From positions 2,250,001-2,282,000 of the forward strand of contig NZ_LN885086.1 in NCBI RefSeq assembly GCF_001458695.1: DNA of 32,000 bases, read 5' to 3'. The DNA is from Candidatus Nitrospira inopinata (lineage in GTDB: Bacteria; Nitrospirota; Nitrospiria; Nitrospirales; Nitrospiraceae). The position numbers were made by a program, and so were the translations under genes. Shown piece by piece: positions 9,101-31,996 of the stretch (position 1 is the first letter of the stretch; each line of letters opens with the position of its first letter). The notes under the pieces are model-generated. The model saw nothing but the letters and a program-made list of their open reading frames with translations. It searched no databases and was not told the DNA's origin.

Positions 9101-9821
9101 CGAGCGTTTTGGTGACCATGGCCAGAGTCTGTGCGTCCCCCGATCGGCGGTGGCTGCGCAGAAGGAGGGACAGCCCCGTAGCGGGTGGAAATTTCGGCGC
9201 GGCACTGAAGCCTCCGTAGGTCTTATCGAACTCTTCTTTAAATTGCGCGACGGCTTCCTCCAGGGCCGTTTCACCGACGGAAATCGGAGGGGGAACCCGG
9301 CCGGCTTGCTTCAACCGTTCCGTCAACGTTCGGGCTTGGGCGTGAATGTCCGCCGAATCGGTTTTCCAGGCCTCGGCGATATGCTTGAGCACGGTGCCGA
9401 AACCCGGTCGTCCCCATCGATCTTCCGGCGGAAAGTAGGTGCCGGCAAAAAACGGTTCTTGATCGGGGGTCAAAAAGACGGTCATCGGCCATCCGCCGTT
9501 ACCGTGGTTCATGGCGACGGTGGCCTGCATGTAGATCTCGTCCAAATCGGGTCGCTCTTCGCGATCGACCTTGACGCAGATGAATTCTCGGTTCATCACC
9601 TCGGCGATGGCTTCGTTCTCGAACGACTCCCGTTCCATGACGTGGCACCAGTGGCAGGAGGAATAGCCGATCGAGAGGAGGATGGGCCGGTTCGTGTCCT
9701 TGGCGGCTTTGAGCGCCTCCGGACTCCAAGGGTACCAATCCACAGGGTTATAGGCGTGTTGAAGGAGGTACGGGCTGGTTTCGTGAATGAGGCGATTAGG
9801 CCGTTTCGAGCTCGATGACAT
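6141..9821 (-). CDS. Fusion protein: YyaL/DUF255 thioredoxin-like plus six-hairpin domain (N-terminal ~680 aa) joined to an aldo/keto reductase domain (C-terminal ~490 aa)
   Basis: The N-terminus reads [17 protein letters not shown]...[21 protein letters not shown]...[12 protein letters not shown], the DUF255/YyaL signature. From about aa 757 of the track ORF the sequence is AKR-like: [16 protein letters not shown] (Asp, Tyr), VASKIG (Lys), LLHNPE (His). I chose ATG 9821 ([20 protein letters not shown]) rather than the track GTG 9887. Confidence 0.85.
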
Positions 9822-9973
9822 GGCGCACCCTAGCACCGTGACGGGAACAGCGTCAATGAGGGGAGGCGGCCCTCTGTACCCTGTCACAGGAGGATACCAC
9901 GATCGATGACCATTGACTGATGACCGAGCCTTGATGGGACTCCCTCAGAGCATCACCTTGATTGCCTTGGTTT

Positions 9974-11461
9974 ATGGTAGGCTTGACGAGAAAACAGGGA
10001 GGCAGGGCCCCGGTGATCGACGACGATCTCTCCTCCAACTACCGCCTCACCGTCAGGCTGGAATTGGCCAACCAACCCGGTGTCTTTGCCCGAGTGGCGA
10101 CGCTCTTGGCCGAGGAGCAAGCGAACCTGGGGGCCGTCGATCTCGTGTCGGCGACCAAAGCCCGCCTGGTTCGCGACGTCACCTTCGACGTGCAAAACGA
10201 GGCGCACGGCGAACGGGTGTTGAATCGGCTGCGTCTGTTGCCGGACGTCGAGGTGATCTCGGCGTCCGATCGTATTTTCTTGCTCCATCTCGGCGGAAAA
10301 ATTCGGGTAGAGGGCAAGGTGCCCGTCAAAACCAGGCATACCCTTTCGATGGTGTACACGCCGGGAGTGGGCCGCGTCGCCGCCGCCATCGCGCAGGACC
10401 CGGCCAAGGCCTACGTCTTCACGAGCAAAGGCAACAGCGTGGCGGTCGTGACGGACGGCTCGGCGGTGTTGGGGCTGGGCAATCTCGGTCCGGAAGCGGC
10501 GCTCCCTGTGATGGAAGGCAAGGTGATGTTATTCAAGGAATTGGCCGGTATCGATGCCTGGCCCCTGTGTCTCAAGACGCAGGATCCGGACGAGATCGCC
10601 CGTATCGTGGAAGGCATCGCGCCCGGTTTCGGCGCCGTGAACTTGGAGGACATCAGCGCGCCCCGTTGTTTCGAGATCGAACGGCGGCTCAAGCAATCGC
10701 TTGAGATCCCGGTCATGCACGACGATCAACACGGCACGGCCGTTGTCGTGCTGGCGGCGTTGACCAACGCGTTGCGGGTGACAGGAAAACGATTGGAGGA
10801 CGTGCACATCGTCGTGAACGGATTGGGGGCTGCCGGCATGGCCTGTTGCCGCATGTTGCTGGCGGCCGGCGTTTCGCATCTTGTGGGGTGCGACAAACAA
10901 GGAATTATTCTGAAGGGTGATGCCGCTACGTTGCAGGGGTGCCGGGACGACCTTGCCGCTTGTCTGACTCCGAACAGTCCCCAAGGGTCTTTGCGTGACG
11001 CGTTGAAGGGCGCCGATGTCTTTATCGGCGTATCAGCGGGAAATATCCTGAGCGCCGAGGCCCTTGACATCATGGCGCCGGATCGGATCGTGTTCGCCAT
11101 GGCGAATCCCGATCCGGAGGTTCCACCCGAACTCGCCCGGTCGCATTGCCGTATTTTCGCCACCGGCCGATCCGACTTCCCCAATCAAATCAACAATGCG
11201 CTCGCCTTTCCCGGTATCTTCCGGGGAGCCCTCGACGTCCAAGCTCGCGAAATCAATGAAGCCATGAAGCTGGCTGCCGCCCATGCCATCGCCGGAGCCG
11301 TTCCCGAGGGGGCCCTGGGCGAGGAATACATCATCCCCAGCCTCTTTGACAAAACGGTCGTGCCAAGAGTGGCGCGCGCCGTGGCCATTGCCGCCAGACA
11401 GACGGGTGTTGCTAGGAGGCGCGCTAAGATCGGCGACGAGCCCGATTCCGGTACGGTGTAA
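9974..11461 (+). CDS. NAD(P)-dependent malic enzyme with N-terminal ACT domain
   Basis: An ACT-like N-terminus (LTVRLELANQPGVFARVATLLAEEQANLGAVDLVS) is followed by malic enzyme motifs: LSMVYTPGV, VVTDGSAVLGLGNLG, MEGKVMLFK, EDISAPRCFEIE, HDDQHGTAVV, VNGLGAAG and ANPDPE. The track ORF starts at TTG 9962. The first ATG is 9974. An alternative GTG at 10013 has a GGGAGG SD 11 nt upstream. Confidence 0.9.
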   Translation: MVGLTRKQGGRAPVIDDDLSSNYRLTVRLELANQPGVFARVATLLAEEQANLGAVDLVSATKARLVRDVTFDVQNEAHGERVLNRLRLLPDVEVISASDRIFLLHLGGKIRVEGKVPVKTRHTLSMVYTPGVGRVAAAIAQDPAKAYVFTSKGNSVAVVTDGSAVLGLGNLGPEAALPVMEGKVMLFKELAGIDAWPLCLKTQDPDEIARIVEGIAPGFGAVNLEDISAPRCFEIERRLKQSLEIPVMHDDQHGTAVVVLAALTNALRVTGKRLEDVHIVVNGLGAAGMACCRMLLAAGVSHLVGCDKQGIILKGDAATLQGCRDDLAACLTPNSPQGSLRDALKGADVFIGVSAGNILSAEALDIMAPDRIVFAMANPDPEVPPELARSHCRIFATGRSDFPNQINNALAFPGIFRGALDVQAREINEAMKLAAAHAIAGAVPEGALGEEYIIPSLFDKTVVPRVARAVAIAARQTGVARRRAKIGDEPDSGTV

Positions 11462-11580
11462 GTCTCTCATCGGTTTGACCGTTTCTCCCTGTCGGCGTGT
11501 CGGATGGATGAGGCCGAGCCGGTCCTTCAGGACCTCCTTCCCGCTGTGCTACAATGCACCCGCCACCGGTGAGCTGAGCG

Positions 11581-12216
11581 ATGCCGTTTTCAATGAGCAA
11601 ATACCTTAAATTCCGTCAGGGGATGCAGAACCGGATCGGGTCGCTGCGCTCCAAGACGGAAGAAAGTTTGGACGTTGCCGTCGACGTCATGATGGAAGAG
11701 CGGGTCGATGGGTTTTTTCGGGTCGAGCAAGGGCTGGAGGAGATCATCCGATCCCTCGCCGAAATTGAAGAGGAGTTGGACGCGATCCGGGACCTGTCCG
11801 GAGCGATGCGTCTGGAGTCACGGCTGGAATTCGTTGAAGACCGCTGGGATGAGTTCGACAGTGAGATCAGGGAGCGACCCAGGCGACGGCGAAAAAGGCT
11901 CAACCTTGCCGATATTTTGAAAGCTTCAAGCGGAAACAGCGGAGCGGTCTCGGACCATTCCGGGGGCGGTATTCATACGGCCATGGACGCCTATGCCGTC
12001 ATGGGGCTGGAATTCGGCAGTTCCCTCGCCGACGTGACGGCCGCGTTTCGAACGAAGGCGAAGCAGTTGCATCCCGACGCCAACAACGGCGATCGCAGCT
12101 CCGAGCCGGAGTTGCGCCGCATGCTGGAAGCGTATCAATTTTTGAAAGAGTATTTGAGTTTGAGCAACGTCGATCCTCTGCGTCCGCCCGATCGTCCCTA
12201 CAATCCATCCGAATAA
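11581..12216 (+). CDS. J-domain (DnaJ-like) protein with uncharacterised acidic/coiled N-terminal region
   Basis: The C-terminal J domain reads DAYAVMGLEFGSSLADVTAAFRTKAKQLHPDANNGD...MLEAYQFLKEY and includes the HPD tripeptide. No Zn-finger or G/F region is present. Confidence 0.7.
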   Translation: MPFSMSKYLKFRQGMQNRIGSLRSKTEESLDVAVDVMMEERVDGFFRVEQGLEEIIRSLAEIEEELDAIRDLSGAMRLESRLEFVEDRWDEFDSEIRERPRRRRKRLNLADILKASSGNSGAVSDHSGGGIHTAMDAYAVMGLEFGSSLADVTAAFRTKAKQLHPDANNGDRSSEPELRRMLEAYQFLKEYLSLSNVDPLRPPDRPYNPSE

Positions 12217-12228
12217 CGTCACGGGCTC

Positions 12229-13437
12229 ATGGCGATACACCCCCCCTATTACATTGCGAACGCCAAAGCGTTGCGCGAGTTCTGCGAGCGATTGCAGGAC
12301 AGCCCCCGGCTCGCCCTTGATACCGAATTCGTCGGCGAAGACAGTTTCGTGCCCAAGCTCGAGCTGATTCAGGTCGCCACGGACGACGTCGCCGCGGTGA
12401 TCGACTTTCCCGCCGTTCAAGCCGACAACGCGCTGGATCTCTTCTGGGAAATCCTCTGCGACCCGGACATTGAAAAGGTCGTGCACGCGGGCCGGCAGGA
12501 TTTGGATCTGTTCGCGGTCCACGCCGGGCGCATCCCGAAGCCGTTTTTCGACACACAGATCGCCGCCGCGATGGTGGGGTACGGGGCGCAGGTCGCCTAT
12601 GCCAGTCTTGTTCAGCGGGTTCACGGCGCCAAGCTGGACAAGGCGCACACGTTCACGAATTGGAGCGCCCGTCCTCTGTCCCATGATCAACTGGCCTATG
12701 CGCTCGACGACGTGACCTATCTGCTGGCGATCTATGATCATCTTCGCGCGCGGCTCTCCAAATTCGGCAGACTTGAGTGGGCCGTCGAAGAATTTTCCCG
12801 TCTGGAGTCGGCCGTCGGAGACATGCGGCGGGATTCTCACGCGCGCTATCAGCGGGTGCGGGGGTGGGACACCCTCAAGCCCAAGTCGGCGGCCGTGCTC
12901 CGGGCCTTGGCGGCTTGGCGGGAAGACGAGGCCAAACGCCGCAACAGCCCGAGAAGCCGGGTGATGCGGGACGAGGTCTTGCTTCAGTTGGCGCGGCGTC
13001 CCCCGAGCACGGTTCAGGAACTGCGGAGCGTCCGTGGCATGCACGAATCGGAAGTCAACCGAAACGGTGAGACGCTGTTGGCCGTCATCGGCGCGGCGTT
13101 GGCGCTGCCCTCTTCCGAGTGGCCTGAGGTCCCGAGAGAACGGAAGCCCGAGCCGGAATCAGCCGGGCTGTTGGAATTGCTGCAGGCGGTGCTCAAGGCC
13201 CGTGCCGCGCAGGAAGACATCGCTCCCGCCATGTTGGGAACGACGGCCGACTTGCAGGCTTTGGCCGAGGCAAAGACGAATCGCGCGACGATGGATCTTC
13301 CTCTGCTCAAGGGGTGGCGGAAATCGTTGGTCGGTGATCTGCTCCTTGATGTGTTGGATGGAAAGCTGGCCGTGAAGACCGATCCCCTTACCGGAGTGGT
13401 GTCTTGGGTCCGGATATCGACGGAGAACAGAGGGTGA
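12229..13437 (+). CDS. rnd: Ribonuclease D (DEDD 3'-5' exonuclease plus HRDC domain)
   Basis: LALDTEF, LIQVAT, HAGRQDLDLF and YALDDVTYL are the Exo I-III motifs. The HRDC-like segment is LRALAAWREDEAKRRNSPRSRVMRDEVLLQLA. Confidence 0.9.
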   Translation: MAIHPPYYIANAKALREFCERLQDSPRLALDTEFVGEDSFVPKLELIQVATDDVAAVIDFPAVQADNALDLFWEILCDPDIEKVVHAGRQDLDLFAVHAGRIPKPFFDTQIAAAMVGYGAQVAYASLVQRVHGAKLDKAHTFTNWSARPLSHDQLAYALDDVTYLLAIYDHLRARLSKFGRLEWAVEEFSRLESAVGDMRRDSHARYQRVRGWDTLKPKSAAVLRALAAWREDEAKRRNSPRSRVMRDEVLLQLARRPPSTVQELRSVRGMHESEVNRNGETLLAVIGAALALPSSEWPEVPRERKPEPESAGLLELLQAVLKARAAQEDIAPAMLGTTADLQALAEAKTNRATMDLPLLKGWRKSLVGDLLLDVLDGKLAVKTDPLTGVVSWVRISTENRG

Positions 13438-13658
13438 GCTCGAGTGAGTTCAACGTGTTTTTATGCAATTCGCGGCAGGAGTTTCTTCCGGTGTGCCGCA
13501 CTCGCGTCCGTCGTCTTGACGAGCGGCACTGCGCCGGTTCCTTGATGGTCTGAACGGCGCGTGCAGCGGTCGGGATCGGTTTCTCGGCAATTGTCGAAAC
13601 GGAAAAAGCCGACCGGTACTTTTTCACCTCCGCTGTGCCAAGGAGAATAAGCCCGCCC

Positions 13659-19070: not shown

Positions 19071-20447
19071 ATGGATCGTATGGAAAATGACGATCCACAC
19101 CGTAAAATTGTGTATCCGGTTGCTCGCCGCCCGAGAGGGTCTGCCCATCCTCGTTTAATGGCCATGTTGTTCTTTTTATCGCTGCTGTGGTTTTCCTGTC
19201 TCCCGATCTCTTTGTTTTCCATCACAGAGGAGGAATCCGCGGCGTTTGCCGAATCTCCTCGCGTTTACACGTTGGATACCATCGTCGATCTGGCGTTGGC
19301 CAAGAACCCGCTGGTCTTTTCCGCCGAAGGCCAAATCGAAGCTCAGCGCGGTTTGCAGACGGCGGCCGGCGCCTATCCCAATCCGACGATCGCCGGTTTG
19401 GGCGGGCACGGCATGTTGCGAGACGCGGGTCGCGCCGGTCTCGGCTCATTCTCAGGTCGTGAGTCTCTGACCGAATACAACGTCACGGTCGGCCAACCCT
19501 TTGAGTGGCCCATGATGCGTGAGGCGCGCCAGCGCGTGGCGGACCTTGGGCTTTCGACGGCGAATGCCGGCCTCATGGAGACGCAACTGAATTTACGATC
19601 ACAGGTCAAAGTGGCCTTCTACGGCCTCCTGCTGGCCCGACAGGACGCCGCGCTGGCCAGACAAAACCTGGGAATCGTCGAGGGAGTCGAACGGATCGTC
19701 AAAGCGAGGGTGAAATCGGGCGAGGCGCCGCAGTTTGAGTTGATCAAGGCCGAGGTCGAGGTTCTGAAAGCCCGACAACAGCTCGCGCGCGCGGAGAATG
19801 TCGTCCGGATCAACCGGGTGGTCATGGATACTCTGACGGGCGGGGCGTTGGGAACCGAGTACGACATCGAGGGGGACTTCATGGCGTTCCCTTCCCGCTT
19901 GCGCGTTGAAGAGTTGATGAACCGGATGATGGAGCGCCATCCCACCATCCAACGGCTGATGAAATCGGTCGAACAATCGGATTGGAAGATCGAGTTCGAG
20001 CGGCAAATGCGGATGCCGACCGTCACGGTCAACGGCGGCTTTTGGCGTGAAATGGACAGAGAAGCCTATCAAGGGGGACTGTCGATTCCATTGCCCTTGT
20101 GGTATCGCCGCGAGGGAGAGATCGCTTCGTCGATGGGAACGAAGCGCAGAGAAGAGGCGGAACTGCTGCGGGTGCGCAACGAGTTGACGATGGCGATCCA
20201 CCAACATTACCAGGACGCCAGGACCACGGCCGAACTGATCGAGGTTTTCGACAAGGGATTGCTCAAACAAGCGCAGGAAGCGCTCCGGCTGGCTCAGTTC
20301 AGTTTTCAGCAGGGTGCCTCCAGCCTGCTCGAAGTGTTGGACGCGCAACGAGTGCAGCGACAAATTCAATTGGACTATGCCGAAGCGCGTCACAACCTCT
20401 CGGTTTCACTGGCCAAGCTGGAACAGGCCGTCGGGGGGGGATTTTGA
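19071..20447 (+). CDS. Outer-membrane efflux factor (TolC family; CusC/CzcC-like) of the RND system
   Basis: OEP-family two-repeat coiled architecture is visible: LDTIVDLALAKNP, QIEAQRGLQTAAGAYPNPT and ASSLLEVLDAQRVQRQIQLDYAEARHNL. The more likely start is ATG 19158, which gives the signal peptide MAMLFFLSLLWFSCLPISLFS. Confidence 0.88.
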   Translation: MDRMENDDPHRKIVYPVARRPRGSAHPRLMAMLFFLSLLWFSCLPISLFSITEEESAAFAESPRVYTLDTIVDLALAKNPLVFSAEGQIEAQRGLQTAAGAYPNPTIAGLGGHGMLRDAGRAGLGSFSGRESLTEYNVTVGQPFEWPMMREARQRVADLGLSTANAGLMETQLNLRSQVKVAFYGLLLARQDAALARQNLGIVEGVERIVKARVKSGEAPQFELIKAEVEVLKARQQLARAENVVRINRVVMDTLTGGALGTEYDIEGDFMAFPSRLRVEELMNRMMERHPTIQRLMKSVEQSDWKIEFERQMRMPTVTVNGGFWREMDREAYQGGLSIPLPLWYRREGEIASSMGTKRREEAELLRVRNELTMAIHQHYQDARTTAELIEVFDKGLLKQAQEALRLAQFSFQQGASSLLEVLDAQRVQRQIQLDYAEARHNLSVSLAKLEQAVGGGF

Positions 20448-21691
20448 TGACGGGACGACCCGAACGTGATCTCTTCCGGATGCTGAACCGCGCGGCGGGC
20501 ATGCGCGCACGCTCGTTGCTCTCAGTCGCGTTGGGGGCCGCGCTATGCGGATTGGCGGCATCGGAATGGGGCTGCGAGAAAGCCCAACACGACGCGATCG
20601 CCGACAATCCTCCCAGCGTTTCGACGCCTCCCGGAGTGGTGACCCTGTCGGCCGAGGAGGCGTCTCGCATCGGGCTGGTTGTTCAACCCGTCGCCAAAAG
20701 CGATTTCCGAACCCATCGCGACTTTCCGGGCATCGTGCAGCCCAACCAGCGCAATATGGCCGAAATCACGGCGCTGGTAAGAGGGCGGGTGATCGAGGTA
20801 TACGCGGATCTCGGCCAGGAGGTCAAAGCCAATCAACCGCTGGCCATTTTGTACAGCAGCGAATTAGGACTGGCTCAGTCCGCCTATCTGAAGGCCAAGG
20901 CGAAGTTGAACCTGGCGGAACAGTCGTACTCACGCGCCCAGTTTCTCCTTGAAGAGAAGGTGATCGGCGAGGCGGAGGCCCAGCGGCGGCAGGCAGAGCT
21001 CTTGAGCATCCAGGCGGAAGCCAACGAAGCGCACGATCGGTTGAAGCTGCTTGGGATGACGCCGGAGGAATTTAAGCGATTGGAGCAAAGCAGGGAAATC
21101 CGGTCCGTCGTGCCGATCGTGGCGCCCTTCGCGGGGCGCGTCATCTCCCGCAAGCTGACGCGGGGAGAGGTCGTCGAAACGACCGAGAACCTCTTTGTCA
21201 TCGCGGATCTGTCGGAAGTATGGGTGTTGGCCAATATTCCCGAAAAAGACATCCCCTTCGTGCACGCCGTTCACGCGTCCAAAGGCACCAAGGCGGAGGT
21301 GCGCGTGAACGCCTATCCGGGCGAAGTATTTCATGGCACGATCACCTACGTGGGGGACGTGTTGGACCCCTCGACCCGCACCATGCAACTGCGCATTGAA
21401 TTGCCCAATTCGGACGGGCGATTCAAACCGGAGATGTTCGCGACGGTTCGCCTCTTCTCCGAACCGCAGCTGGATCGCTTGGCCGTGCCGGACGCGGCGT
21501 TGCAGCATGATCAAGGCAAGACGTTCGTCTTCGTCCAGCGCAAAGCGACCGAATACGAAGTGCGAGAAGTCGAAGTCGGCGAGTCCAACGGCGCGCTGAC
21601 GTCGATTCTCGCCGGTCTCGATGAAGGAGAACGGATCGTCACCCACGGCGCCTTTCTGTTGAAGTCCGAGCTGCTGAAAAAACAGGTCTGA
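20447..21691 (+). CDS. RND efflux periplasmic adaptor (membrane fusion protein, CusB/CzcB-like)
   Basis: The start ATG overlaps the upstream stop (TGATG at 20445-20449). The N-terminus has a signal or lipobox-like segment (ALCGLAASEWGC). HlyD/MFP features are ITALVRGRVIEVYADLGQEVKANQPLA, a coiled hairpin, and IVAPFAGRVI. The 348-nt upstream extension in the track ORF overlaps the OMF gene and is rejected. Confidence 0.9.
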   Translation: MTGRPERDLFRMLNRAAGMRARSLLSVALGAALCGLAASEWGCEKAQHDAIADNPPSVSTPPGVVTLSAEEASRIGLVVQPVAKSDFRTHRDFPGIVQPNQRNMAEITALVRGRVIEVYADLGQEVKANQPLAILYSSELGLAQSAYLKAKAKLNLAEQSYSRAQFLLEEKVIGEAEAQRRQAELLSIQAEANEAHDRLKLLGMTPEEFKRLEQSREIRSVVPIVAPFAGRVISRKLTRGEVVETTENLFVIADLSEVWVLANIPEKDIPFVHAVHASKGTKAEVRVNAYPGEVFHGTITYVGDVLDPSTRTMQLRIELPNSDGRFKPEMFATVRLFSEPQLDRLAVPDAALQHDQGKTFVFVQRKATEYEVREVEVGESNGALTSILAGLDEGERIVTHGAFLLKSELLKKQV

Positions 21692-24600
21692 TGGTCTCTC
21701 GTCTTCTCGATGTTTCTCTTCGCCAGCGGCTGCTGATCGTCCTGCTCTCGCTTCTGATCGCCGGCGGAGGGCTCTATGCGTTCAGGACCATTCCCATCGA
21801 CGCGTTTCCGGACGTGACGAGCGTGCTGGTGCAGGTCGTGACCAAAGCGCCCGGTCTCTCGCCCCCCGAGGTCGAACGGTTGGTGACCTATCCGATTGAA
21901 TTGCAACTGACCGGCGTGCCCGCCGTCACCGAGATGCGATCTCTGACGAAAGTGGGGCTCTCGCTGGTGACGATCGTGTTCGACGATTCGATGGACATCA
22001 ATCTCGCGCGCCAACTGGTGCTCGAGCGGCTTCTTGAAGTGGAGGAATTGCTCCCCCCCGGCGCCGAGCCGATGTTGATGCCCAACAGCACGGGACTCGG
22101 CGAGGTGTTTCAATACTATCTGGATGGGCCGAGCAATCCGCCGACGGACGACGCGGAGGAGTATCGACGACTCATCGATCAACGCACGATCCAGGATTGG
22201 GTCATCCGCCCCCTGTTGAAGGGCACGCCCGAGGTGATCGACGTCAATTCGATGGGGGGCTACGTCAAGCAATATCAAGTGCTGGTCGAGCCGGCCATGC
22301 TGCGGAAGTACAACCTCTCGTTGCGCGAAGTATTCGAGGCCGTGGCCAGAAACAACGCCAACGCCGGCGGCAATATTTTGGAGAAACACGCCGAGAAGTA
22401 CATCGTGCGGGGGCGCGGCCTGATCCGTTCGCTTGAGGACATCGAGCGCATCGTCGTCAAAGAAGTCGGGGGGACGCCGGTGTTCGTGGGAGACATCGCC
22501 AACGTCGTGATCGGACACGCCGTGCGCCATGGGGCGACGCTGCTCAACGGCGAGCGCGAAGTCGTGAGCGGAATCGTTCTGATGTTGCGAGGGGGGAACG
22601 CCAGAGACGTGGTGGAAGGCATCAAATCGCGCATCGAGGACATCCATGCCAAGGAGCTGTTGCCGAACGGAATGCGCATCGTGCCGTTCTATGACCGGAT
22701 CGAGCTGATCACCGCCGCGCTGAACACGGTGTACAAGGCTCTCGCCGAAGGCGTGACGCTGGTCGTCGTCGTGTTGTTTCTGTTTCTGGGCAATATTCGC
22801 AGCGCGCTGATCGTCGTGGCCACGTTGATACTCGGTCCGTTGGCTACGTTTATCGTGATGGGGCAGGTCGGATTAACGGCCAATCTCATGTCGCTCGGAG
22901 GCTTGGCCATCGCCATCGGCATGATGGTCGATGGATCGGTCGTGGTGGTGGAAAACGTCTATCGCCACCTGTCGCACCAATCGTCCGCCGGTGTCTCCAA
23001 ATCAGAGCTCATCAGAGAGGCGGTCAAAGAAGTCGGCCAACCGGTGGTGTTCGGCATTCTCATCATCATCGTGGTGTTTCTGCCTCTGCTTTCCCTGCAA
23101 GGGATGGAGGGCAAGATGTTCAAACCCCTTGCCTATACCATCATGATTGCTCTGTTGGTTTCGCTGGTGCTCTCGCTCACGCTCTCTCCGGTCCTCTGCT
23201 CGTTGGCGTTGACACGCGGATCGGAGGACGATCCGTGGATCGTGAGAGCCGCCAAAGGGTTGTATGCTCCGGCGCTGCGATGGGCGCTGGGGCATCGTCT
23301 TGTCGTGGTGACGCTGGCGGTCGGCGCGTTGGTCGGCAGCCTGGTGTTGGTCCCCTTTTTGGGGAGCGAATTCATTCCCATTTTGAACGAAGGAGCCATG
23401 GCCCCCCAAACGATCCGACTGCCGAGCGTGTCGCTGGAAGCCTCCCTTGCCATCGAGAAACGAGCGCAACGGGCGATCATGGAGTTCCCGGAAGTCGAGA
23501 TGGCGGTCTCGAAGATCGGTCGCACGGAGTTAGGCAACGATCCTCAGGAGCCGAACGAGAGCGATCCCGTCGTCAGGCTGCGCCCGCTCGATCAATGGAC
23601 GACGGCGAAGACGATGCCGGAGTTGATGCAGAAGGTCAGAGAACGGCTCTCGCAGGTGACGGGCGCGACGTTTTTGATCAGCCAACCTATCCAACAGCGG
23701 GTGGACGAGTTGATTTCCGGGGTCAGAACCGAGGCGACGGTCAAGTTGTTCGGCGACGACTTGGAGGTGCTCCGAACCAAAGCCGAGGAAATCGCCGCCG
23801 TGCTTGGAACCGTGCGCGGCGTTCGCGACATCAAGGTCGAGCAATTGTTCGGTCAACCCTATCTCACGATAGATATTGATCGTGGCAAGATCGCGCGGCA
23901 TGGGTTGAACGTGGCCGACGTGCGGCAGATCATCACGACGGCGATCGGCGGCGAAGTAGCGACGCGGGTGTTTGAAGGTCAGCAACGCTTCGATCTCGTC
24001 GTTCGATTTCCGGAACAGTATCGGGACGGGATGGAGGCCATCAGCAACATTTTGTTGATGGACCAGACCGGGGCGCTGATTCCCTTGGCGGATCTCGGCA
24101 CGATCAAACTCGAAGAAGGACCGGGTCGGATCAGCAGGGAGCGCCTTCAACGGTATGTTTCGATTGGCTTCAACACGTTGGGCCGCGACATCGGCAGTCT
24201 GGTGGCCGAGGCGCAACGCAAAATCGCGCAGCAAGTCGTGCTTCCCACCGGCTATACGGTGTCATGGGGCGGCTCGTTCGAGAACATGGAGCGGGCCATG
24301 TCAAGGCTGCGCGTCATTGTTCCGGTGACGATCGGGCTGATCTTTTTATTGCTCTATTCGACGTTCGGCTCCCTTCGCCAGGCCGTGCTCATCATTCTCA
24401 ATCTTCCCTTCGCTTTGATCGGCGGAGTGGTGGCGCTGTGGATCACGGGCGAGTATCTGAGCGTGCCGGCGTCCGTCGGGTTCATCAATCTCTTCGGCGT
24501 TGCCGTCTTAAACGGTATCGTGTTGGTGTCGTACATGAACAAGCTCCGTGAAGACGGGTATGGTCTGGACGACGCCGTGATGTCGGGCGCGTTGTTGCGG

Positions 24601-25236
24601 TTGCGGCCCGTGCTGATGACGGCCTTGGTAGCCTTGCTCGGTCTGGTGCCACTGGCTCTGGCGAACGGTATTGGATCGGAAGTGCAGCGTCCGTTGGCGA
24701 TCGTCGTCATTGGAGGTTTGGTCACCTCCACGTTGTTGACGTTGATTCTCTTGCCCGTGCTCTATCGATGGATAGAAAGCCGACCGAGCGAAACCGGTTC
24801 GACTGCACGACGAGAGGCAATGGTCAACCGGCTTGAAACCGGCGCGGTCGTCACTCATGGGGCGGGCAGTGGTGGGACGGTCATGATCGCGATGATCCTC
24901 GGCGCATCGCTGGTGCTTGGAGTCGTCCTGGGTGGAGGGGGAGCAGCAGTGGTGGAAGGCCGGGAAAAGCCGGCAGAGGCAAGAGCCGATCGGGGGAGGA
25001 AGATCTATCTGAAGTACTGTGCCGGCTGCCATGGTGTCGAAGGAAAAGGCGATGGCTACAAGTTGCTAGGTGCCGATCCCGCCGCGTTGGCTGCTCCCTC
25101 GACCCAGAGAAAGTTCGACACGACGTTGCTGAAGACTATTCACGAGGGCAAAGCCGCCATGCCGCCTTGGAACGTTCGCCTCTCCGAGCAAGAAGAGCGG
25201 GACGTGCTCGCCTACATTCGGACGTTGCATCAGTAA
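21691..25236 (+). CDS. Heavy-metal-efflux RND inner-membrane pump (CusA/CzcA family) fused to an extra TM helix and a C-terminal c-type cytochrome domain
   Basis: The start overlaps the MFP stop (TGATG). The RND core runs from MVSRLLDVSLRQRLLIVLLS to LLPVLYRWIE. The TM4 motif is LGGLAIAIGMMVDGSVVVVEN. After about aa 1040 there is a linker. A hydrophobic helix VMIAMILGASLVLGVVLGGGGAAVV follows (nt ~24880-24954). Then comes KIYLKYCAGCHG (CAGCH at nt 25018-25032) ...GKAAMPPW...AYIRTL. The reading frame is continuous with no stop. Confidence 0.9.
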   Translation: MVSRLLDVSLRQRLLIVLLSLLIAGGGLYAFRTIPIDAFPDVTSVLVQVVTKAPGLSPPEVERLVTYPIELQLTGVPAVTEMRSLTKVGLSLVTIVFDDSMDINLARQLVLERLLEVEELLPPGAEPMLMPNSTGLGEVFQYYLDGPSNPPTDDAEEYRRLIDQRTIQDWVIRPLLKGTPEVIDVNSMGGYVKQYQVLVEPAMLRKYNLSLREVFEAVARNNANAGGNILEKHAEKYIVRGRGLIRSLEDIERIVVKEVGGTPVFVGDIANVVIGHAVRHGATLLNGEREVVSGIVLMLRGGNARDVVEGIKSRIEDIHAKELLPNGMRIVPFYDRIELITAALNTVYKALAEGVTLVVVVLFLFLGNIRSALIVVATLILGPLATFIVMGQVGLTANLMSLGGLAIAIGMMVDGSVVVVENVYRHLSHQSSAGVSKSELIREAVKEVGQPVVFGILIIIVVFLPLLSLQGMEGKMFKPLAYTIMIALLVSLVLSLTLSPVLCSLALTRGSEDDPWIVRAAKGLYAPALRWALGHRLVVVTLAVGALVGSLVLVPFLGSEFIPILNEGAMAPQTIRLPSVSLEASLAIEKRAQRAIMEFPEVEMAVSKIGRTELGNDPQEPNESDPVVRLRPLDQWTTAKTMPELMQKVRERLSQVTGATFLISQPIQQRVDELISGVRTEATVKLFGDDLEVLRTKAEEIAAVLGTVRGVRDIKVEQLFGQPYLTIDIDRGKIARHGLNVADVRQIITTAIGGEVATRVFEGQQRFDLVVRFPEQYRDGMEAISNILLMDQTGALIPLADLGTIKLEEGPGRISRERLQRYVSIGFNTLGRDIGSLVAEAQRKIAQQVVLPTGYTVSWGGSFENMERAMSRLRVIVPVTIGLIFLLLYSTFGSLRQAVLIILNLPFALIGGVVALWITGEYLSVPASVGFINLFGVAVLNGIVLVSYMNKLREDGYGLDDAVMSGALLRLRPVLMTALVALLGLVPLALANGIGSEVQRPLAIVVIGGLVTSTLLTLILLPVLYRWIESRPSETGSTARREAMVNRLETGAVVTHGAGSGGTVMIAMILGASLVLGVVLGGGGAAVVEGREKPAEARADRGRKIYLKYCAGCHGVEGKGDGYKLLGADPAALAAPSTQRKFDTTLLKTIHEGKAAMPPWNVRLSEQEERDVLAYIRTLHQ

Positions 25237-25592: not shown

Positions 25593-25901
25593 ATGAAGAG
25601 CCGGTCGATCAAGCTGATGGTCATCATCGTCATCGCGATTGCATACGCGATGGTTGCGCTTCCTTTGCCATACTTGCTGCTCGATCACTCTGCCGCCATG
25701 CAGGCGGGTGATGCGCATCATTCCGACCGTGATGTACATGCCTGGCTTGAATGGGCCGCTAGTTCCTCGCTGACCGAGTCTCCGCCTCCCTTGCCCGCTT
25801 CGCTCGCCCCGTTGCCGGCACCACCTGTTCCATCAGTTATGGTGCGTGCCGTTCTGCCCGATCTCGCCAGCCATTTGCGCGGTCCGCCCGCGTTTGCCTG
25901 A
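25593..25901 (+). CDS. Hypothetical small membrane-anchored protein with His-rich and Pro-rich extracytoplasmic tail
   Basis: The N-terminal TM segment is IKLMVIIVIAIAYAMVALPLPYLLL. It is followed by DHSAAMQAGDAHHSDRDVHAWLEW and a Pro-rich segment. Codon bias is fair. I recognise no family. Confidence 0.4.
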   Translation: MKSRSIKLMVIIVIAIAYAMVALPLPYLLLDHSAAMQAGDAHHSDRDVHAWLEWAASSSLTESPPPLPASLAPLPAPPVPSVMVRAVLPDLASHLRGPPAFA

Positions 25902-26022: not shown

Positions 26023-26253
26023 ATGGTTGAAGAACAACGTCGTCGCGTGATCGACGACACTACACCGGTGGATTGGAAGAATGTGGAATGGTTGCGCAAG
26101 TTTCTGACCGAACACGGGCGGATCCTGCCTCGTCGTCTCACGGGCAACAGTTGGCAACGACAACGGGAGATCGCTCGCGCGATCAAACGTGCGCGACACA
26201 TGGCGCTGTTGCCGTTTGGTGGACGGCTGAATGCCGACCGAAACAGAATCTAA
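26023..26253 (+). CDS. rpsR: 30S ribosomal protein S18, Cys-free extra copy
   Basis: [50 protein letters not shown] is the S18 core. A GGAGGA SD lies 6 nt before ATG 26023. The track start 25984 is a GTG extension. There are no cysteines. Confidence 0.9.
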
Positions 26254-26277
26254 GCCCCAGGAGATCAGGAGGTTCTC

Positions 26278-26583
26278 ATGGCGAAACTCAGCAGCGTGTT
26301 GCGCAACGAAAAACGCAAACAGTTGGTCGCCAAGTATGCCGAACAGCGTAAGGCGCTCAAGGCGATCATTAAACGGCACGACAGCACTCCGGAGGAAAAA
26401 CGACGAGCTCAAGACGCACTCAACCGTCTGCCGCGCAACTCATCACCGGTACGGGTGCGGAATCGCTGCGCGCTATCGGGCCGCGTGCGGGGCTACCTGC
26501 GGCGGTTCGGCATCTCACGCATTGACTTTCGATTGCTGGCGCTCAAGGGGGAAATCCCCGGCGTCAGGAAATCGAGCTGGTAA
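26278..26583 (+). CDS. rpsN: 30S ribosomal protein S14, long (101 aa) non-zinc-ribbon form
   Basis: [24 protein letters not shown]...[51 protein letters not shown] is the canonical long S14. It has no CxxC pairs. A CAGGAGG SD is present. Confidence 0.95.
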
Positions 26584-26609
26584 ACCAGGCGAAGCGAAGG
26601 GAGGCACCG

Positions 26610-26864
26610 ATGAAGCCGGGTATTCATCCGACGAACTACCGTCCCGTCGTCTTCCATGACGTGGCGATCGACAAACGGTGGATCATGATGTCCACCGTTG
26701 AGACTCACGAAACGACGGTCTGGGAAGACGGCCGAACCTATCCACTCTACAGAGTGGAAACGTCCATGTACTCGCATCCGCTGTACACGGGGACCCAGCG
26801 GATTGTCGATGCCGAGGGGCGGGTTGAGAAATTCAACAAGAAGTATCGTCTTCACCGAACATGA
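26610..26864 (+). CDS. rpmE2: 50S ribosomal protein L31 type B (zinc-independent paralog type)
   Basis: MKPGIHPTNYRPVVFHD...YPLYRVETSMYSHPLYTGTQRIVDAEGRVEKFNKKY matches the L31 type B pattern and lacks the CxxC motif. An AAGGGAGG SD is present. Confidence 0.95.
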   Translation: MKPGIHPTNYRPVVFHDVAIDKRWIMMSTVETHETTVWEDGRTYPLYRVETSMYSHPLYTGTQRIVDAEGRVEKFNKKYRLHRT

Positions 26865-26964
26865 GCAAGCCGCAGGATCAAGTCTGCCTGAAGAGCAGGC
26901 GGCGAGCATTGAGCGACGGATTCCACCATCGAGCGGTGACGAGCAATGGAAAGGGAGCCTGTTG

Positions 26965-28149
26965 ATGCACAAAGTGAGCGTGATCGTGGTGTCGGGATTT
27001 GTCGGCGCCGGAAAGACCACTCTAGTGGGCCATCTTGTCCAAGAATTGGGTCCGGCACGAACCGCCGTCATGGCGGAAGCTGGTTCAGTCTGGGTCCCAG
27101 AGGAGGTGGAAGCCAATCTGTCGTGTGATCGGCATGGTGCCCGTGATCCTTGTTCGTTTCGGCGGCGTCTTGCCGACGCGATCATGGAGGCGGCCCGCTT
27201 CGGGCGGTGCGAGACCATTCTGATCGAAAATTCCGGTGGGACGGATCCGCTGCTTGTCGCCAATCTGTTCGAGGCACACACTCCCGATGGCGACGCGCTG
27301 TCCATGGTCGCCCGGCTTGATCATCTGATCACCGTCATCGATGCCGAGCGGTTCTGGCTGGATTATGAATCGGGAGACACGCTGGGGGAGCGGGGAGTCA
27401 GGTGGGGGCCGGATCGTGACCGGGCTGTGGCCGAACTCCTCGCCGACCAGGTGGAATGTGCCACGGCGCTTGTGCTGAACAAGTGCGATCGCGTGACGCA
27501 GGACGAACGGCTGCGTCTTGAGCGGTTTCTGCGATTGGCCAATCCCGATGCGGCTTTGGTGACCGTGTCATCGGGAAGACCTGGATCAATCGCGAGTTCG
27601 CTTCCGGCTGGCGGGAGCAGTGATATCAAGCCGGGATGGATGCAACTGCTGAGCGGCGATCTTTTGGCCGATCATCAATGTGCCATGGACGGTCTGTTGG
27701 TGTACCGAGCGAAGCGTCCTTTTCATCCGATGCGATTCTGGCAGTTCATTCAGGATGAGTGGCCGGGCGTGATGCGCTCCAAGGGATACTTCTGGATCGC
27801 CTCGCAACCCAAGACTTGTTACATGTGGTCGCAGGCCGGGGCCAACTGCCTTTACGAGCGGTTGGGCCGCTGGTGGGTGGCGATTCCGGATCAGCACTGG
27901 CCGAAGGGAGAAGGGGCGCTCGAGGAGCTGCGGAAGGTGTGGGATCTCGAATTCGGGGATCGCCGGATCGAGCTGGCCTTTATCGGGGAACACATGGATC
28001 GTTCCGCTTTGACGAGACGACTGGATGAGTGTCTCTTGACGAGGGACGAACTGTGCCTGGACGAAGAACTCTGGCGTGCATTTCGAGATCCCTTCAAAAA
28101 AGCGAGCTGGGAGAAACGGCATGGTCGATCGGAATGGCGGCATCGCTGA
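26965..28149 (+). CDS. COG0523-family (CobW/YjiA/ZigA-like) P-loop GTPase, putative metallochaperone, lacking the canonical CxCC motif
   Basis: The start is chosen at ATG 26965 (MHKVSVIVVSGFVGAGKTTL, Walker A). Other motifs are ILIENSGGTDP (switch/Walker B region), LNKCD (NKxD), and a CobW_C-like C-terminus (RSKGYFWIASQP...GDRRIELAFIG). The track ORF start at 26698 overlaps the L31 gene and is rejected. Confidence 0.88.
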   Translation: MHKVSVIVVSGFVGAGKTTLVGHLVQELGPARTAVMAEAGSVWVPEEVEANLSCDRHGARDPCSFRRRLADAIMEAARFGRCETILIENSGGTDPLLVANLFEAHTPDGDALSMVARLDHLITVIDAERFWLDYESGDTLGERGVRWGPDRDRAVAELLADQVECATALVLNKCDRVTQDERLRLERFLRLANPDAALVTVSSGRPGSIASSLPAGGSSDIKPGWMQLLSGDLLADHQCAMDGLLVYRAKRPFHPMRFWQFIQDEWPGVMRSKGYFWIASQPKTCYMWSQAGANCLYERLGRWWVAIPDQHWPKGEGALEELRKVWDLEFGDRRIELAFIGEHMDRSALTRRLDECLLTRDELCLDEELWRAFRDPFKKASWEKRHGRSEWRHR

Positions 28150-29074: not shown

Positions 29075-29159
29075 TGAGCTCTTGGTGCAGCTGCTGAATA
29101 CTTCGCCACCAGGCAAACGCCCAACCAATCGACTCAACAAGAGAGGAAATCATCGCGTG

Positions 29160-31208
29160 ATGGTGGACCTTGCCACGGATATCGCCCATCAGATCGGGTT
29201 TTTGACGGGGATGGTGCTCTACGCCGTGTTGCTGGCCATGGTGCTGGCGAAGTCGGTCTCGGTTTCTGCGGAGGGAGGGACGACAAGACGTTGGCATGAG
29301 CGGTTGCCGATTCCCCTCGCGATCGCCGTCCTCGGGTTGCTCTGGAACCTGGCCGGCCTCGCCTCGGGGCTGGTGCCGGCCCACACGCCCGTCGTCACTC
29401 CGGCTTTGTTGTCGTTCGTGGCCGTGTCAACGTTGAGCGGGCTGCCGGCGTTGGCGCTCCATTCCGTGTGGCAGGCGGCTGTTGGAGAGATGAGAAGACT
29501 GCTGGGTTTGGTGGTGCTGGGCGGTTACGGATTAAGTGTCGCGACCCTGTTGTGGAACGGCTGGGCGCTGGCATCCGGCGATCCGGTTCCTGATCCCGAT
29601 GCATGGCGGATGCTCACCGGAGGGTTTCTCTTTTTGTTTTGCGCCTTGCTCGTGATCATGAAACAGGCCTTGACCGGTCACAGCGGACTTGTGCTGGTCC
29701 TGCTGGCTGTCTGTTCGGTTGCGGCATTGCCGATCAGTCACCATTCCACGGACGGACTGCCCTGGTGGCTGGATTTTCTGGGCCACCATGCATCCCTTCC
29801 CATTGCCGTCGCCGTGCTCTATCGCGATTACCGATTTGCTTTCGTCGATAGGTTTATCAGCAAAGCCCTGTCGTTCTTGTCGCTGGTTAGCGTCACGGTC
29901 GGCTGCCATGTCTTGCTTGTGGCTGTAGCTCCCTGGGTTGATGGTGGTACGACGCCTCGTTTTTCACCAGTGATCTCCGCCTTGATGATTTCATTGTGGG
30001 TTGCGACGGCCTTGGGATATCCCTGGTTGGAACGGAAGGTGACGTGGCTGATTGATCGGTTCATCCTTGAGCGGCCTGACTATCAGGGATTGCGTCGCCG
30101 GTTGGGCTCCCGCTTGGATGAATTGGACACGGTGGAAGCTGTGTTGGGGGAACTGTGTCAGACGTTGCAACAGGCACTACGGTCTCGAGAAGTTCAATGG
30201 GAGCAGGTTGCGACAATTCCTTCGTTGCCTCGTCTGGCCGAGGGCCATTGCAAGACTGATGGAGGGCAAAAGCGTGCACCAGTCGAGCAAGAGATTCCCA
30301 TTCTCACGACCCAGGGAAGTCTGATGATGATTGTGCCGACGTGGGAGTCGCCCCGTTACCGCGTGATAGTGGCTGCACGTGAAGATGGGCACCGGTTTCT
30401 CTCGGAAGAATTGACGCTGGTGGAAGAGGCGGCATTGCTTGCCGCGCGGCGGATCGACGTGCTACGCACGAGCCATGAACGATGCGAAATTGCTCTTCGG
30501 GAGCAAGAGATGCAAAAACTCGCCACCGAAGCGGAATTGCGGGCACTGCGCGCGCAGGTGAATCCCCATTTCTTGTTCAACGCGCTCAACACCGTCGGCT
30601 ATCTCATTGATACGGCGCCAGCCCGGGCCGCCGCCACCTTGCGGGATCTCACGTATCTGCTACGAAACATTCTCCGCCGGATGGAAGACAACTTCACTAC
30701 GCTGGGCGAGGAACTCGATCTGGTACGCGCCTATCTCGACATTGAACGGGCGCGATTCGAAGAGCGCTTATCCGTTCAGATCGAGGTGCCTCGGGAGCTG
30801 CACAGAACGACGGTCCCGGCACTGGTGCTTCAACCGCTGGTGGAAAATGCCGTCAAACATGGCATCCAGCCGTCGATGCGTGGTGGAGCAATCCGCATCA
30901 CTGCCTGGCTGACGCCCCAGTCGGCCATGCAGGGCTGTCCCCGCCTGTCGCCGCAATTGCTCTGTTTAGAGATTGCTGATACGGGCGTAGGCGCCTCCGA
31001 AGAGGCCTTGAAGCGAGGCCGGGAGCGGGGGATCGGTTTATCCAACGTGGAGAACCGACTTCGATGCCTCTATGGAGCCTGGGCCTCATTGCGGATTGTC
31101 AGCACGTCGGGCGTGGGCACGACGGTCACGGTTCAACTTCCCGTCGATGAGCCGGCGGTGCCGTCGGTATCATCCACCTCCGTGGCAGTGGGGAGAGGGG
31201 TGGCATGA
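29160..31208 (+). CDS. LytS/AlgZ-type sensor histidine kinase (His_kinase plus HATPase_c) with a large polytopic N-terminal domain
   Basis: LRAQVNPHFLFNALNTVGYLI is the PF06580-type phosphoacceptor signature. HATPase motifs are LVLQPLVENAVKHGI, IADTGVG and GIGLSNVENRL. The N-terminal ~330 aa contains about 8 hydrophobic helices. The start is ATG 29160 or GTG 29157, after a GAGAGGAAA SD. The track start is TTG 29082. Confidence 0.85.
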   Translation: MVDLATDIAHQIGFLTGMVLYAVLLAMVLAKSVSVSAEGGTTRRWHERLPIPLAIAVLGLLWNLAGLASGLVPAHTPVVTPALLSFVAVSTLSGLPALALHSVWQAAVGEMRRLLGLVVLGGYGLSVATLLWNGWALASGDPVPDPDAWRMLTGGFLFLFCALLVIMKQALTGHSGLVLVLLAVCSVAALPISHHSTDGLPWWLDFLGHHASLPIAVAVLYRDYRFAFVDRFISKALSFLSLVSVTVGCHVLLVAVAPWVDGGTTPRFSPVISALMISLWVATALGYPWLERKVTWLIDRFILERPDYQGLRRRLGSRLDELDTVEAVLGELCQTLQQALRSREVQWEQVATIPSLPRLAEGHCKTDGGQKRAPVEQEIPILTTQGSLMMIVPTWESPRYRVIVAAREDGHRFLSEELTLVEEAALLAARRIDVLRTSHERCEIALREQEMQKLATEAELRALRAQVNPHFLFNALNTVGYLIDTAPARAAATLRDLTYLLRNILRRMEDNFTTLGEELDLVRAYLDIERARFEERLSVQIEVPRELHRTTVPALVLQPLVENAVKHGIQPSMRGGAIRITAWLTPQSAMQGCPRLSPQLLCLEIADTGVGASEEALKRGRERGIGLSNVENRLRCLYGAWASLRIVSTSGVGTTVTVQLPVDEPAVPSVSSTSVAVGRGVA

Positions 31209-31996
31209 CGGAGCCGGCGACGAAACTCCGTGTCATCGTCGCGGATGACGAGCGGCCGGCGCGCGCCGTCTTAATCAAACTGCTCGGATCATTTTCCGAT
31301 GTCGAGCTGGTGGGCGAAGCGGAAAACGGGCCGGCAACAGTCGAACTGATCAACCATGCCAATCCCGACCTGGCCTTGATCGATCTCCAAATGCCAGGGC
31401 TAGATGGGCTGGGCGTGGCGCGAAAATTCAAGACCGCGGATCGTCCATTAATCGTGTTTGTCACCGCCTACGATGAATATGCAGTGGGGGCGTTCGAAGT
31501 GGACGCGATGGATTATCTGTTAAAACCGGTGGACCGCAAACGATTGGCCGAGACATTGGCACGGGCCCGTACAAGACTTGAACAATTGGCCCTGACCGAC
31601 GGCGAGGCGCCTGATCTGGAGCCGGCTCGGGCGGAGGAGTCCCCCAACGGGATGCCGTGCTTTCTCGAACGGATCCCCGTCCGTCAAAAGGACGACATCA
31701 TTCTCTTGCCGGTCAATCAGATTGCCTCGGTCGTGGCCGACGGCGAGTTGTTGTATCTGACGACAATCCGGAAAGAACGGCATGTGATCAACTATCGCCT
31801 CAAGGCCCTTGAGCGGCGATTGGATCCCCGACGATTCATTCGAATCGACCGTGGTTCGATCATCAATATCGAATGTCTCAGTCGCGTCACCCCCATGCCG
31901 GGCGGCGTCTTTCTGGTCACGCTCGCGAACACTCAACAGCTCAAAGTAAGCCGCGCCCAGTCGCGCCTGCTGCGCAAGCGGCTGCTCAGACTGTAA
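31205..31996 (+). CDS. LytTR-family response regulator (REC plus LytTR DNA-binding domain)
   Basis: The REC domain shows RVIVADDERPAR...PDLALIDLQMPGLDG...VFVTAYDEYA..A...DYLLKP. The LytTR domain shows IPVRQKDDIILLPVNQIASVVADGELLYLTT...LKALERRLDPRRFIRIDRGSIINI. Its ATG overlaps the kinase stop (ATGA at 31205-31208). Confidence 0.9.
   Translation: MTEPATKLRVIVADDERPARAVLIKLLGSFSDVELVGEAENGPATVELINHANPDLALIDLQMPGLDGLGVARKFKTADRPLIVFVTAYDEYAVGAFEVDAMDYLLKPVDRKRLAETLARARTRLEQLALTDGEAPDLEPARAEESPNGMPCFLERIPVRQKDDIILLPVNQIASVVADGELLYLTTIRKERHVINYRLKALERRLDPRRFIRIDRGSIINIECLSRVTPMPGGVFLVTLANTQQLKVSRAQSRLLRKRLLRL

Follow-up and report, generated by a model that had tools for sequence, protein, structure and literature searches.

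The stretch of DNA analysed here, a segment of 32,000 nucleotides from Candidatus Nitrospira inopinata which is referred to as the window, carries an operon for a heavy-metal efflux (HME) pump from the RND (resistance-nodulation-division) superfamily, and the pump gene of this operon reads without interruption into a cytochrome c. A preliminary description of the window had reported a single frame of 1181 amino acids (aa), a hydrophobic helix beyond the pump and a haem c attachment motif with a downstream methionine of class I type, and all of these elements are recovered by the present analysis, at nucleotide coordinates which proved exact. The product has been deposited as CUQ67302.1 / WP_082633759.1 from Ca. 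Nitrospira inopinata under the name 'CusA/CzcA family transporter', a designation that misses the cytochrome domain. The operon and the parts of the fused gene are as follows, in coordinates of the window.

19071-25236, forward strand: operon encoding an outer-membrane factor (OMF), a membrane-fusion protein (MFP) and an RND pump, the fused pump being its third gene
19071-20447, forward strand: first gene of the operon, outer-membrane factor (TolC/CzcC-like; Pfam OEP, 151 bits)
20447-21691, forward strand: membrane-fusion protein (CzcB-like adaptor) of 414 aa (Pfam HlyD_D23, 199 bits)
21691-25236, forward strand: fused open reading frame (ORF), with an ATG start, uninterrupted, 1181 aa
21691-24777, forward strand: HME-RND pump core, aa 1-1029, with 12 transmembrane (TM) helices (ACR_tran, TIGR00914, match to ZneA, hydropathy)
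24778-24879, forward strand: linker, aa 1030-1063 (34 aa), without a stop codon (alignment to the unfused locus L001)
24880-24954, forward strand: hydrophobic helix 13, VMIAMILGASLVLGVVLGGGGAAVV, aa 1064-1088 (hydropathy, homology to signal peptides)
24955-25233, forward strand: predicted periplasmic domain, a monohaem cytochrome c of class I that resembles CcoP, c552 and c6 (PF13442, PF00034)
25018-25032, forward strand: haem c attachment motif CAGCH, aa 1110-1114, with Cys, Cys and His invariant in the family alignment
25159-25161, forward strand: Met1157, the presumed sixth (axial) haem ligand, in an invariant MPxW motif (column M127 of alignment A2)

The public gene call for the outer-membrane factor begins at 19080 and comprises 455 aa in an identical contig (L002); the membrane-fusion protein called in that contig belongs to the families BSH_CzcB and CzcB_C, and the stop codon of its gene overlaps the start codon of the pump. 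A scan for terminators and promoters around the operon gave results not better than those from shuffled controls.

The pump core is recognized by Pfam as ACR_tran (aa 7-1028, 960 bits) and by the NCBIfam model TIGR00914 (CusA/CzcA) over aa 1-1036, at 1149.7 bits, the cut-off being 701.45. It ends with LLPVLYRWIE, as had been stated, but at aa 1020-1029 and thus below the position of about 1035 given in the preliminary description, and the linker noted there is present, although with 34 rather than about 28 residues, among them EAMVNR and LETGAVVTHGAGSGGTV. Hydropathy analysis (Kyte-Doolittle, a crude method) detects 12 TM peaks in the expected 1+6 / 5+... pattern of RND proteins, with large periplasmic loops at approximately aa 35-345 and 565-868, together with a 13th peak at aa 1058-1090 whose score of 2.42 is equal in strength to those of genuine TM helices. 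This agrees with the 13 hydrophobic spans that had been anticipated, and an additional span past the cytoplasmic end of TM12 would place the following domain in the periplasm, where we infer that it receives haem.

Both a cytochrome c domain and ACR_tran had been expected from a Pfam search, and both exceed their gathering scores: Cytochrome_CBB3 (PF13442) matches aa 1097-1176 with 49.0 bits (cut-off 27) and Cytochrom_C (PF00034) scores 37.2 bits (cut-off 21.3), the two matches lying within aa 1097-1179. An alignment of 16 sequences yields the family signature CAGCHG.EGKGDGYKLLGADPA...LLKTIHEGK..MPxW...VLAYIRTL, in which Cys, Cys, His and Met are invariant, Met1157 being part of the segment GKAAMPPW (aa 1153-1160). 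When compared with the PDB, the profile of this alignment matches the CcoP haem domains of cbb3 oxidase (E 1.6e-18) and also Kuenenia c552, actinobacterial QcrC and cytochromes c6. In an AlphaFold2 (AF2) model of the tail, with a mean predicted local distance difference test (pLDDT) score of 66 and values of approximately 70-92 in the cytochrome core, an N-terminal helix leads into CxxCH and is followed by short middle helices and a long C-terminal helix, while the hydrophobic segment forms an isolated helix. Foldseek matches of the tail in the PDB are all class I cytochromes c, at TM-scores of about 0.5 (target-normalised) and with weak E-values of at least 0.03. Family, profile and model together mark the tail as genuinely a cytochrome c of class I, in agreement with its initial assignment.

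Maintenance of the fused frame

The 120 closest homologue clusters, all from Nitrospira and 81-97% identical, are each represented by a protein of 1033-1079 aa from which a cytochrome domain is absent, a distribution that speaks in favour of a sequencing or assembly artefact by which a missed stop codon or a frameshift merged two genes. On the other hand, gene calls on 11 contigs give precisely the 1181-aa product of the window, and the six loci that were retrieved, assembled independently from six runs belonging to four accession series, are 100% identical in DNA to the window; the same sequence is present in the closed N. inopinata genome of 3,295,117 bp. These six loci are re-sequencings of one strain and do not represent independent lineages. 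Since the junction DNA is the same in at least six independently assembled runs, an error of sequencing or assembly is excluded as its source, and the earlier description of one uninterrupted frame holds.

Further evidence against an artefact is provided by a second, diverged lineage (P0393), whose product is likewise 1181 aa long, 90% identical and free of gaps through linker, helix and cytochrome. It occurs on five contigs from two sources (L088 and L089), which differ in their downstream genes. An artefactual origin of the fused frame is accordingly extremely improbable and essentially refuted. The only other fused match in a junction-spanning search (P0271; L090, ERZ2470813 NODE_3237), which could be counted on the side of an artefact, was rejected because its contig has a coverage of 0.93x and its pump is fragmented into four gene calls; the read-through in this case is most likely a sequence error, and it calls for caution when fusions are counted in metagenomes.

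The persistence of the fused gene under selection is apparent from a comparison of N. inopinata with L088, for which the ratio of non-synonymous to synonymous rates (omega) was determined by the Nei-Gojobori method. At a synonymous divergence (dS) of about 0.9 between the two fused lineages, the 151 codons of the tail contain 0 indels and 0 stops, and omega amounts to 0.054 for the pump core and 0.115 for the cytochrome domain. Because these values are low and the frame has remained intact at such a distance, the cytochrome part is a maintained and selected coding sequence within the fused frame. For the linker, which also lacks indels, omega is 0.31 and thus below neutral, with small substitution counts, and for helix 13 it reaches 0.68, with hydrophobicity retained.

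Derivation from a separate cytochrome gene

The ancestry of the fused gene was traced in a survey of species-representative genomes, in which a scripted junction analysis was applied to approximately 71 Nitrospira loci with an intact 3' end of the pump gene. The preliminary description had suggested looking for a stop codon between pump and cytochrome in orthologous loci; such an arrangement exists in 22 of these loci, where the pump gene is directly followed by a distinct cytochrome gene, and none of the approximately 71 is fused. No cytochrome occurs within 3 kb in the other loci. Among the 22 split pairs all three relative reading frames are represented, and the separate cytochrome begins about 20-40 nucleotides (nt) past the pump stop codon. 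In L001, an unfused locus that is 97% identical, the TAG stop of the pump is followed by 18 nt containing GGTGGTGA and then by the ATG of a 117-aa cytochrome c, which starts with a textbook Sec signal peptide, MTTRIIGAALLLLAVLLGERSAMA/GEE (here and below, the slash marks the cleavage-type site).

All of the free-standing orthologues begin with signal peptides ending in AxA-type sites, and because helix 13 of the fused protein aligns with the signal peptides of the 22 free-standing orthologues, the 13th helix can be regarded as the recruited signal peptide of a once independent gene. The extra helix that had been reported is thus real as a hydrophobic span, but it is a former Sec signal peptide and not a purpose-built TM segment. 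By the same alignments, the linker corresponds to the hypervariable cytoplasmic tail of the pump joined to the old intergenic region. Two further features are relevant to this history.

24865-24885, forward strand: relic ribosome-binding site (RBS; GGTGGGA) and ancestral cytochrome ATG (24883), which lies within the fused ORF and in its frame (start of L001 in the homologous position)
24456-24755, no strand assigned: approximate recombination (mosaic) breakpoint (sliding-window identity)

In the separate genes of L001 the start region reads GGTGGTGAAGTC followed by ATG. The corresponding region of N. inopinata, GGTGGGACGGTC, precedes an ATG at 24883 which is intact and in frame; with RBS and ATG preserved, this organism may still yield some free cytochrome by internal initiation. 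In L088 the region reads GGCGGGACAGTC followed by ATA, and the second Met has been replaced by Leu. Since the RBS and both internal ATGs have decayed there, the cytochrome of this lineage is probably made only as a fusion. A small-residue, cleavage-type site has been kept after the helix in both fused lineages (GAA/VV in N. inopinata, AVA/EG in L088), so that release of the cytochrome by signal peptidase would be possible. A comparable event has reportedly been described for the Bradyrhizobium fbcH b-c1 polyprotein, in which an internal signal peptide is said to be cleaved after insertion.

The junction itself has a mosaic history. From the OMF gene to most of the pump (19071-24455) the window is 90-97% identical to the unfused L001 and 65-87% identical to the fused L088, while from about 24456 through linker and helix the identity drops to 60% against L001 and amounts to 81-88% against L088; a BLAST match to L001 of 93% identity stops at 24771. 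Because the identity switches near 24456, the fused 3' junction can be considered an allele that the window has in common with the L088 lineage, and which may have been shared either through recombination or through ancestral retention with replacement in L001. Downstream gene content differs in N. inopinata, L001 and L088. As judged from the homologues that were searched, the fusion is derived, rare and young, and is restricted to N. inopinata and one sister lineage. An exhaustive search with the tail by itself found, as long matches, tandem multihaem proteins without ACR_tran, in a search to which fused members of clusters with an unfused representative are invisible.

These observations bear on a second explanation, namely that the fusion is a neutral read-through, in which the cytochrome is an unrelated passenger of the operon, loss of the stop codon has been tolerated since the domain is still exported by its now internal signal peptide, and a free soluble cytochrome like that of other Nitrospira is still obtained through signal peptidase or from the ATG at 24883. 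The cleavage-type site in both lineages, the intact RBS and ATG of N. inopinata and the rarity of the fusion, found in two lineages and in none of the 22 species with the gene pair, are all in line with such a view. It is at odds with the persistence of the fused allele over a dS of about 0.9, with the loss of the start signals in L088 and, within the limits of the small counts, with the linker omega below neutral. Together with the distribution of the cytochrome considered below, neutral read-through is possible but on balance doubtful.

Pump type and zinc-related surroundings

The substrate class of the pump was approached through solved structures, annotated relatives and gene context. The best solved structure is the Zn-exporting ZneA (PDB 4K0E), with 753 bits over aa 1-1034, and CusA comes second with 635 bits. 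CusA residues M573, M623 and M672 are matched by Q573, E623 and E673, the numbering having been checked against the Met letters of the CusA chain, and because the aligned residues are Q, E and E the three-Met site for Cu(I)/Ag(I) is absent. In the alignment, D617 and D625 take the places of ZneA D602 and E610, and Q669 that of ZneA D654 (hand mapping); we take D602, E610 and D654 to be metal-site residues of ZneA. Among annotated plasmid pumps, SilA is 34-35% identical and proteins annotated as CzcA 41-44%, and two uncharacterised proteobacterial pumps reach 53-55%. Two features of the window belong to this subject.

22912-22956, forward strand: proton-relay motif of TM4, AIGMMVDGSVVVVEN, aa 408-422, in which Ala replaces the first Asp of CzcA/ZneA
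26023-28149, forward strand: zinc-free paralogues of ribosomal proteins S18, S14 and L31 and a COG0523/CobW GTPase, with L28 next and the cluster extending to 28430 (Pfam on L002 gene calls, CobW domains, Cys counts)

The HME1/HME2 pumps (CzcA, CnrA, NccA type) have the TM4 signature DFG-DGA-VEN (PMC3637150). The N. inopinata pump reads AIG-MMV-DGS-VVV-VEN at this place and deviates from the DFG-x3-DGA-x3-VEN signature; the pattern AIG-x3-DGS-x3-VEN recurs in approximately 128 homologues from Nitrospira and in both proteobacterial pumps, which are encoded on plasmids of Methylomagnum and Ralstonia (L091, L092). The preliminary description had likened the pump to CusA on the basis of TM4, a resemblance that comes down to the first Ala and that is not sustained by the scores or by the substituted Met triad. 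Since ZneA scores above CusA, the triad is gone and the TM4 motif is particular to the clade, the pump would represent an uncharacterised HME subgroup nearer to the divalent-cation pumps. The Ralstonia pump gene is followed by a gene of the PII family, and a pairing of pump and PII also occurs in a cobalt-induced czc operon of Geobacter (PMC7726332).

The ribosomal paralogues S18, S14, L31 and L28 downstream of the operon have 0-1 Cys each, S14 being of the long, 101-aa type, and the COG0523 GTPase comprises 394 aa. This is a classic zinc-starvation (Zur-regulon-type) set, and its position next to a ZneA-like pump hints at zinc homeostasis. The adjacency of the pump operon and this cluster is not conserved in relatives, and no convincing Zur-box-like palindrome emerged when the regions upstream of the operon and of the ribosomal paralogues were searched.

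Other ORFs of the window were recorded as well. On the 3' side of the fused gene, at 25593-25901 (forward strand), lies an ORF of 102 aa with an N-terminal hydrophobic segment, a Pro-rich tail and no Pfam match, which is among the gene calls of the identical contigs and is absent from L001 and L088. About 4 kb downstream, at 29082-31996 (forward strand), a LytS-type histidine kinase (His_kinase and HATPase_c) and a LytTR response regulator are encoded. The reverse strand carries at 6141-9887 a 1248-aa ORF of unusually long multi-domain arrangement, with a DUF255/thioredoxin-like N-terminus (Thioredox_DsbH, 257 bits), a middle part resembling six-hairpin glycosidases and an aldo/keto reductase.

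Role of the cytochrome and comparison with known systems

Across Nitrospira the association of pump and cytochrome is both recurrent and incomplete. A downstream cytochrome is found in approximately 19 of the 32 loci of the nearest pump clade, in none of the 28 loci of the middle clade and in 3 of the 15 loci of a distant paralogous clade (L070, L073, L085), the paralogous pumps that have the same cytochrome family beside them being only 56-61% identical. Where the gap between pump and cytochrome is larger, no other conserved gene lies in between, and the distances among pumps and among cytochromes are modestly correlated, with a Mantel r of 0.37, a value that 76 of 2000 permutations reach. 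L088 contains at 8885-13546 a second MFP-RND pair directly downstream, which is followed by another cytochrome homologue (62% identity, incomplete because the locus ends within it).

Because the adjacency recurs with paralogous pumps, the spacing is tight, the arrangement is operon-like and an actual fusion exists, we infer a functional partnership of the two proteins; because the distribution is patchy, this partnership would be accessory and not essential, and the pump would work without the cytochrome. In this regard, the recurrent pairing in Nitrospira operons is a more meaningful pattern than the fusion. It concerns globally important nitrifiers, in whose genomes the small cytochrome has been an unremarked neighbour, and a natural fusion can serve as a 'Rosetta stone' that links two proteins otherwise merely adjacent.

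The arrangement in N. inopinata is probably best explained as a lineage-specific fusion in which the cytochrome acts as a periplasmic accessory of this pump clade, either tethered to the pump or delivered as a cleavable precursor. According to this proposal, the stop codon of the pump was lost, so that translation continues from its variable cytoplasmic tail, without a change of frame, through what had been the intergenic region, and the old signal peptide would have become an internal hydrophobic span, presumably inserted in an N-in/C-out orientation, that carries the cytochrome domain across the membrane to the periplasm, the site of haem attachment. The product could be a pump with a tethered periplasmic cytochrome, or a precursor cut at the signal-peptidase-type site that frees the usual soluble cytochrome, and in N. 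inopinata separate translation from the relic RBS and ATG may also take place. The most plausible role of the cytochrome would be to donate electrons to, or accept them from, a redox-active substrate or partner on the periplasmic side of the pump.

Several observations weigh against a cytochrome that serves the pump in this way. Its occurrence is patchy, since it is missing in all 28 loci of the middle clade and in about 40% of the nearest clade, and no cytochrome adjoins the closest proteobacterial pumps of Methylomagnum and Ralstonia. The alignment of the cytochrome family contains no extra conserved metal-binding motif, and the protein is of the ordinary electron-carrier type. If the substrate is Zn(II), as both the similarity to ZneA and the zinc-starvation cluster hint, a redox step that the cytochrome could serve is not obvious. 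The omega of helix 13 and the few substitutions in the linker provide little evidence that the junction as such is under constraint, and with a cleavage-type site kept, and with RBS and ATG kept in N. inopinata, the fusion could be functionally silent. The literature search yielded no expression, haem-staining or proteomic data on the fused protein.

The patchy occurrence, which shows that the pump does not need the cytochrome, and the generic nature of the electron carrier would also suit neutral read-through of an operon passenger. The presence of the same family beside pumps of 56-61% identity and beside the second pump of L088 is hard to explain by chance and argues for the accessory. If the fusion is nevertheless functionally silent, it would constitute a clean case in which the disappearance of a stop codon has turned a signal peptide into an internal segment for membrane spanning or export.

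A more far-reaching possibility, which had been put forward as a speculation in the preliminary description, is that of a redox-coupled or redox-sensing exporter, in which the tethered haem alters the oxidation state of Cu or of another redox-active substrate or gates the pump according to redox conditions. In its explicit form, the cytochrome would remain attached to the RND trimer as a working part, with the haem oxidising or reducing a redox-active metal such as Cu, Fe, Co or Mn at the entrance, or with gating by the periplasmic redox state; this form is quite unlikely. The predicted topology sets the haem domain beside the periplasmic entrance of the pump, and the fusion and the conserved adjacency suggest a physical or functional interaction, while a loose precedent exists in Xanthomonas, where full resistance to copper requires CopM (PMC10924375). 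Against these points, the pump has no Met triad for Cu(I) and is nearer to the Zn-type ZneA, the cytochrome is ancestrally and usually free and soluble, so that tethering is not required, it has no further conserved residues for metal binding, and the zinc-related surroundings of the gene give redox chemistry no obvious part. Redox coupling or sensing is improbable for this exporter; if true, it would establish a new class of redox-assisted RND efflux, of which the split czcCBA-cytochrome operons would be the two-component version.

In keeping with the earlier remark that a characterised example was not known, literature searches found no paper on this protein or on a fusion of RND pump and cytochrome c. 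In the single Nitrospira paper with a mention of the pump family, it figures as a generic metal pump (PMC7078480). HME-RND pumps are well known, as are, in respiration, membrane proteins that end in a cytochrome c domain, and their combination, seen here in two closely related lineages and possibly present elsewhere, appears to be new. A haem domain joined to an RND pump would point to an unrecognised accessory function, for example the conditioning of the oxidation state of the substrate. To our knowledge, RND metal pumps have been regarded as purely proton-driven machines without a redox cofactor. N. inopinata, a complete nitrifier, is available in pure culture.

Compared with known systems, the pump resembles the ZneA/CzcA type (Zn/Co/Cd) in its OMF-MFP-RND operon, its 12 TM helices, the lack of a Met triad and the acidic residues at the positions of ZneA D602 and E610, and it differs from this type in the AIG-DGS-VEN motif of TM4 and in the C-terminal linker, helix and cytochrome c, which are not known from any characterised member. 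With CusA and SilA (HME4, Cu(I)/Ag(I)) it shares the superfamily, the fold and an Ala at the first TM4 position, whereas Q, E and E instead of the Met triad, the lower score of 635 bits, the 34-35% identity to SilA and an operon without a CusF-like gene set it apart.

As regards the tail, CcoP of cbb3 oxidase, its closest solved relative, has the same order of a membrane anchor and then a periplasmic class I cytochrome c. Subunit II of caa3 oxidases likewise combines a membrane anchor with a C-terminal periplasmic cytochrome c. In CcoP and the caa3 subunit, which belong to respiratory complexes, the haem supplies a catalytic centre, whereas here the membrane partner is a proton-driven transporter, and we know of no redox centre in an RND transporter. 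Bradyrhizobium fbcH is said to place a polytopic membrane protein upstream of a cytochrome c with an internal signal peptide, as in the fused gene, although the partner proteins differ. CopM, a protein with a cytochrome c domain that is encoded in the copLAB-MGF copper-resistance cluster of Xanthomonas and Stenotrophomonas and contributes to resistance (PMC10924375), is similar in being a small cytochrome c-type protein of a metal-resistance cluster; it belongs to a copper system and is unfused to a pump. The direct homologue of the fused tail is the free-standing partner cytochrome of other Nitrospira (approximately 117-140 aa, e.g., at 9189-9542 of L001), which is 55-82% identical to it, has the same invariant CAGCHG...GDGY...IHEGK..MPxW signature and occupies the same position right after the pump gene. 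An RBS, a start codon, a charged n-region and a cleavable signal peptide belong to this separate gene, whereas in N. inopinata all of these are embedded in the frame of the pump.

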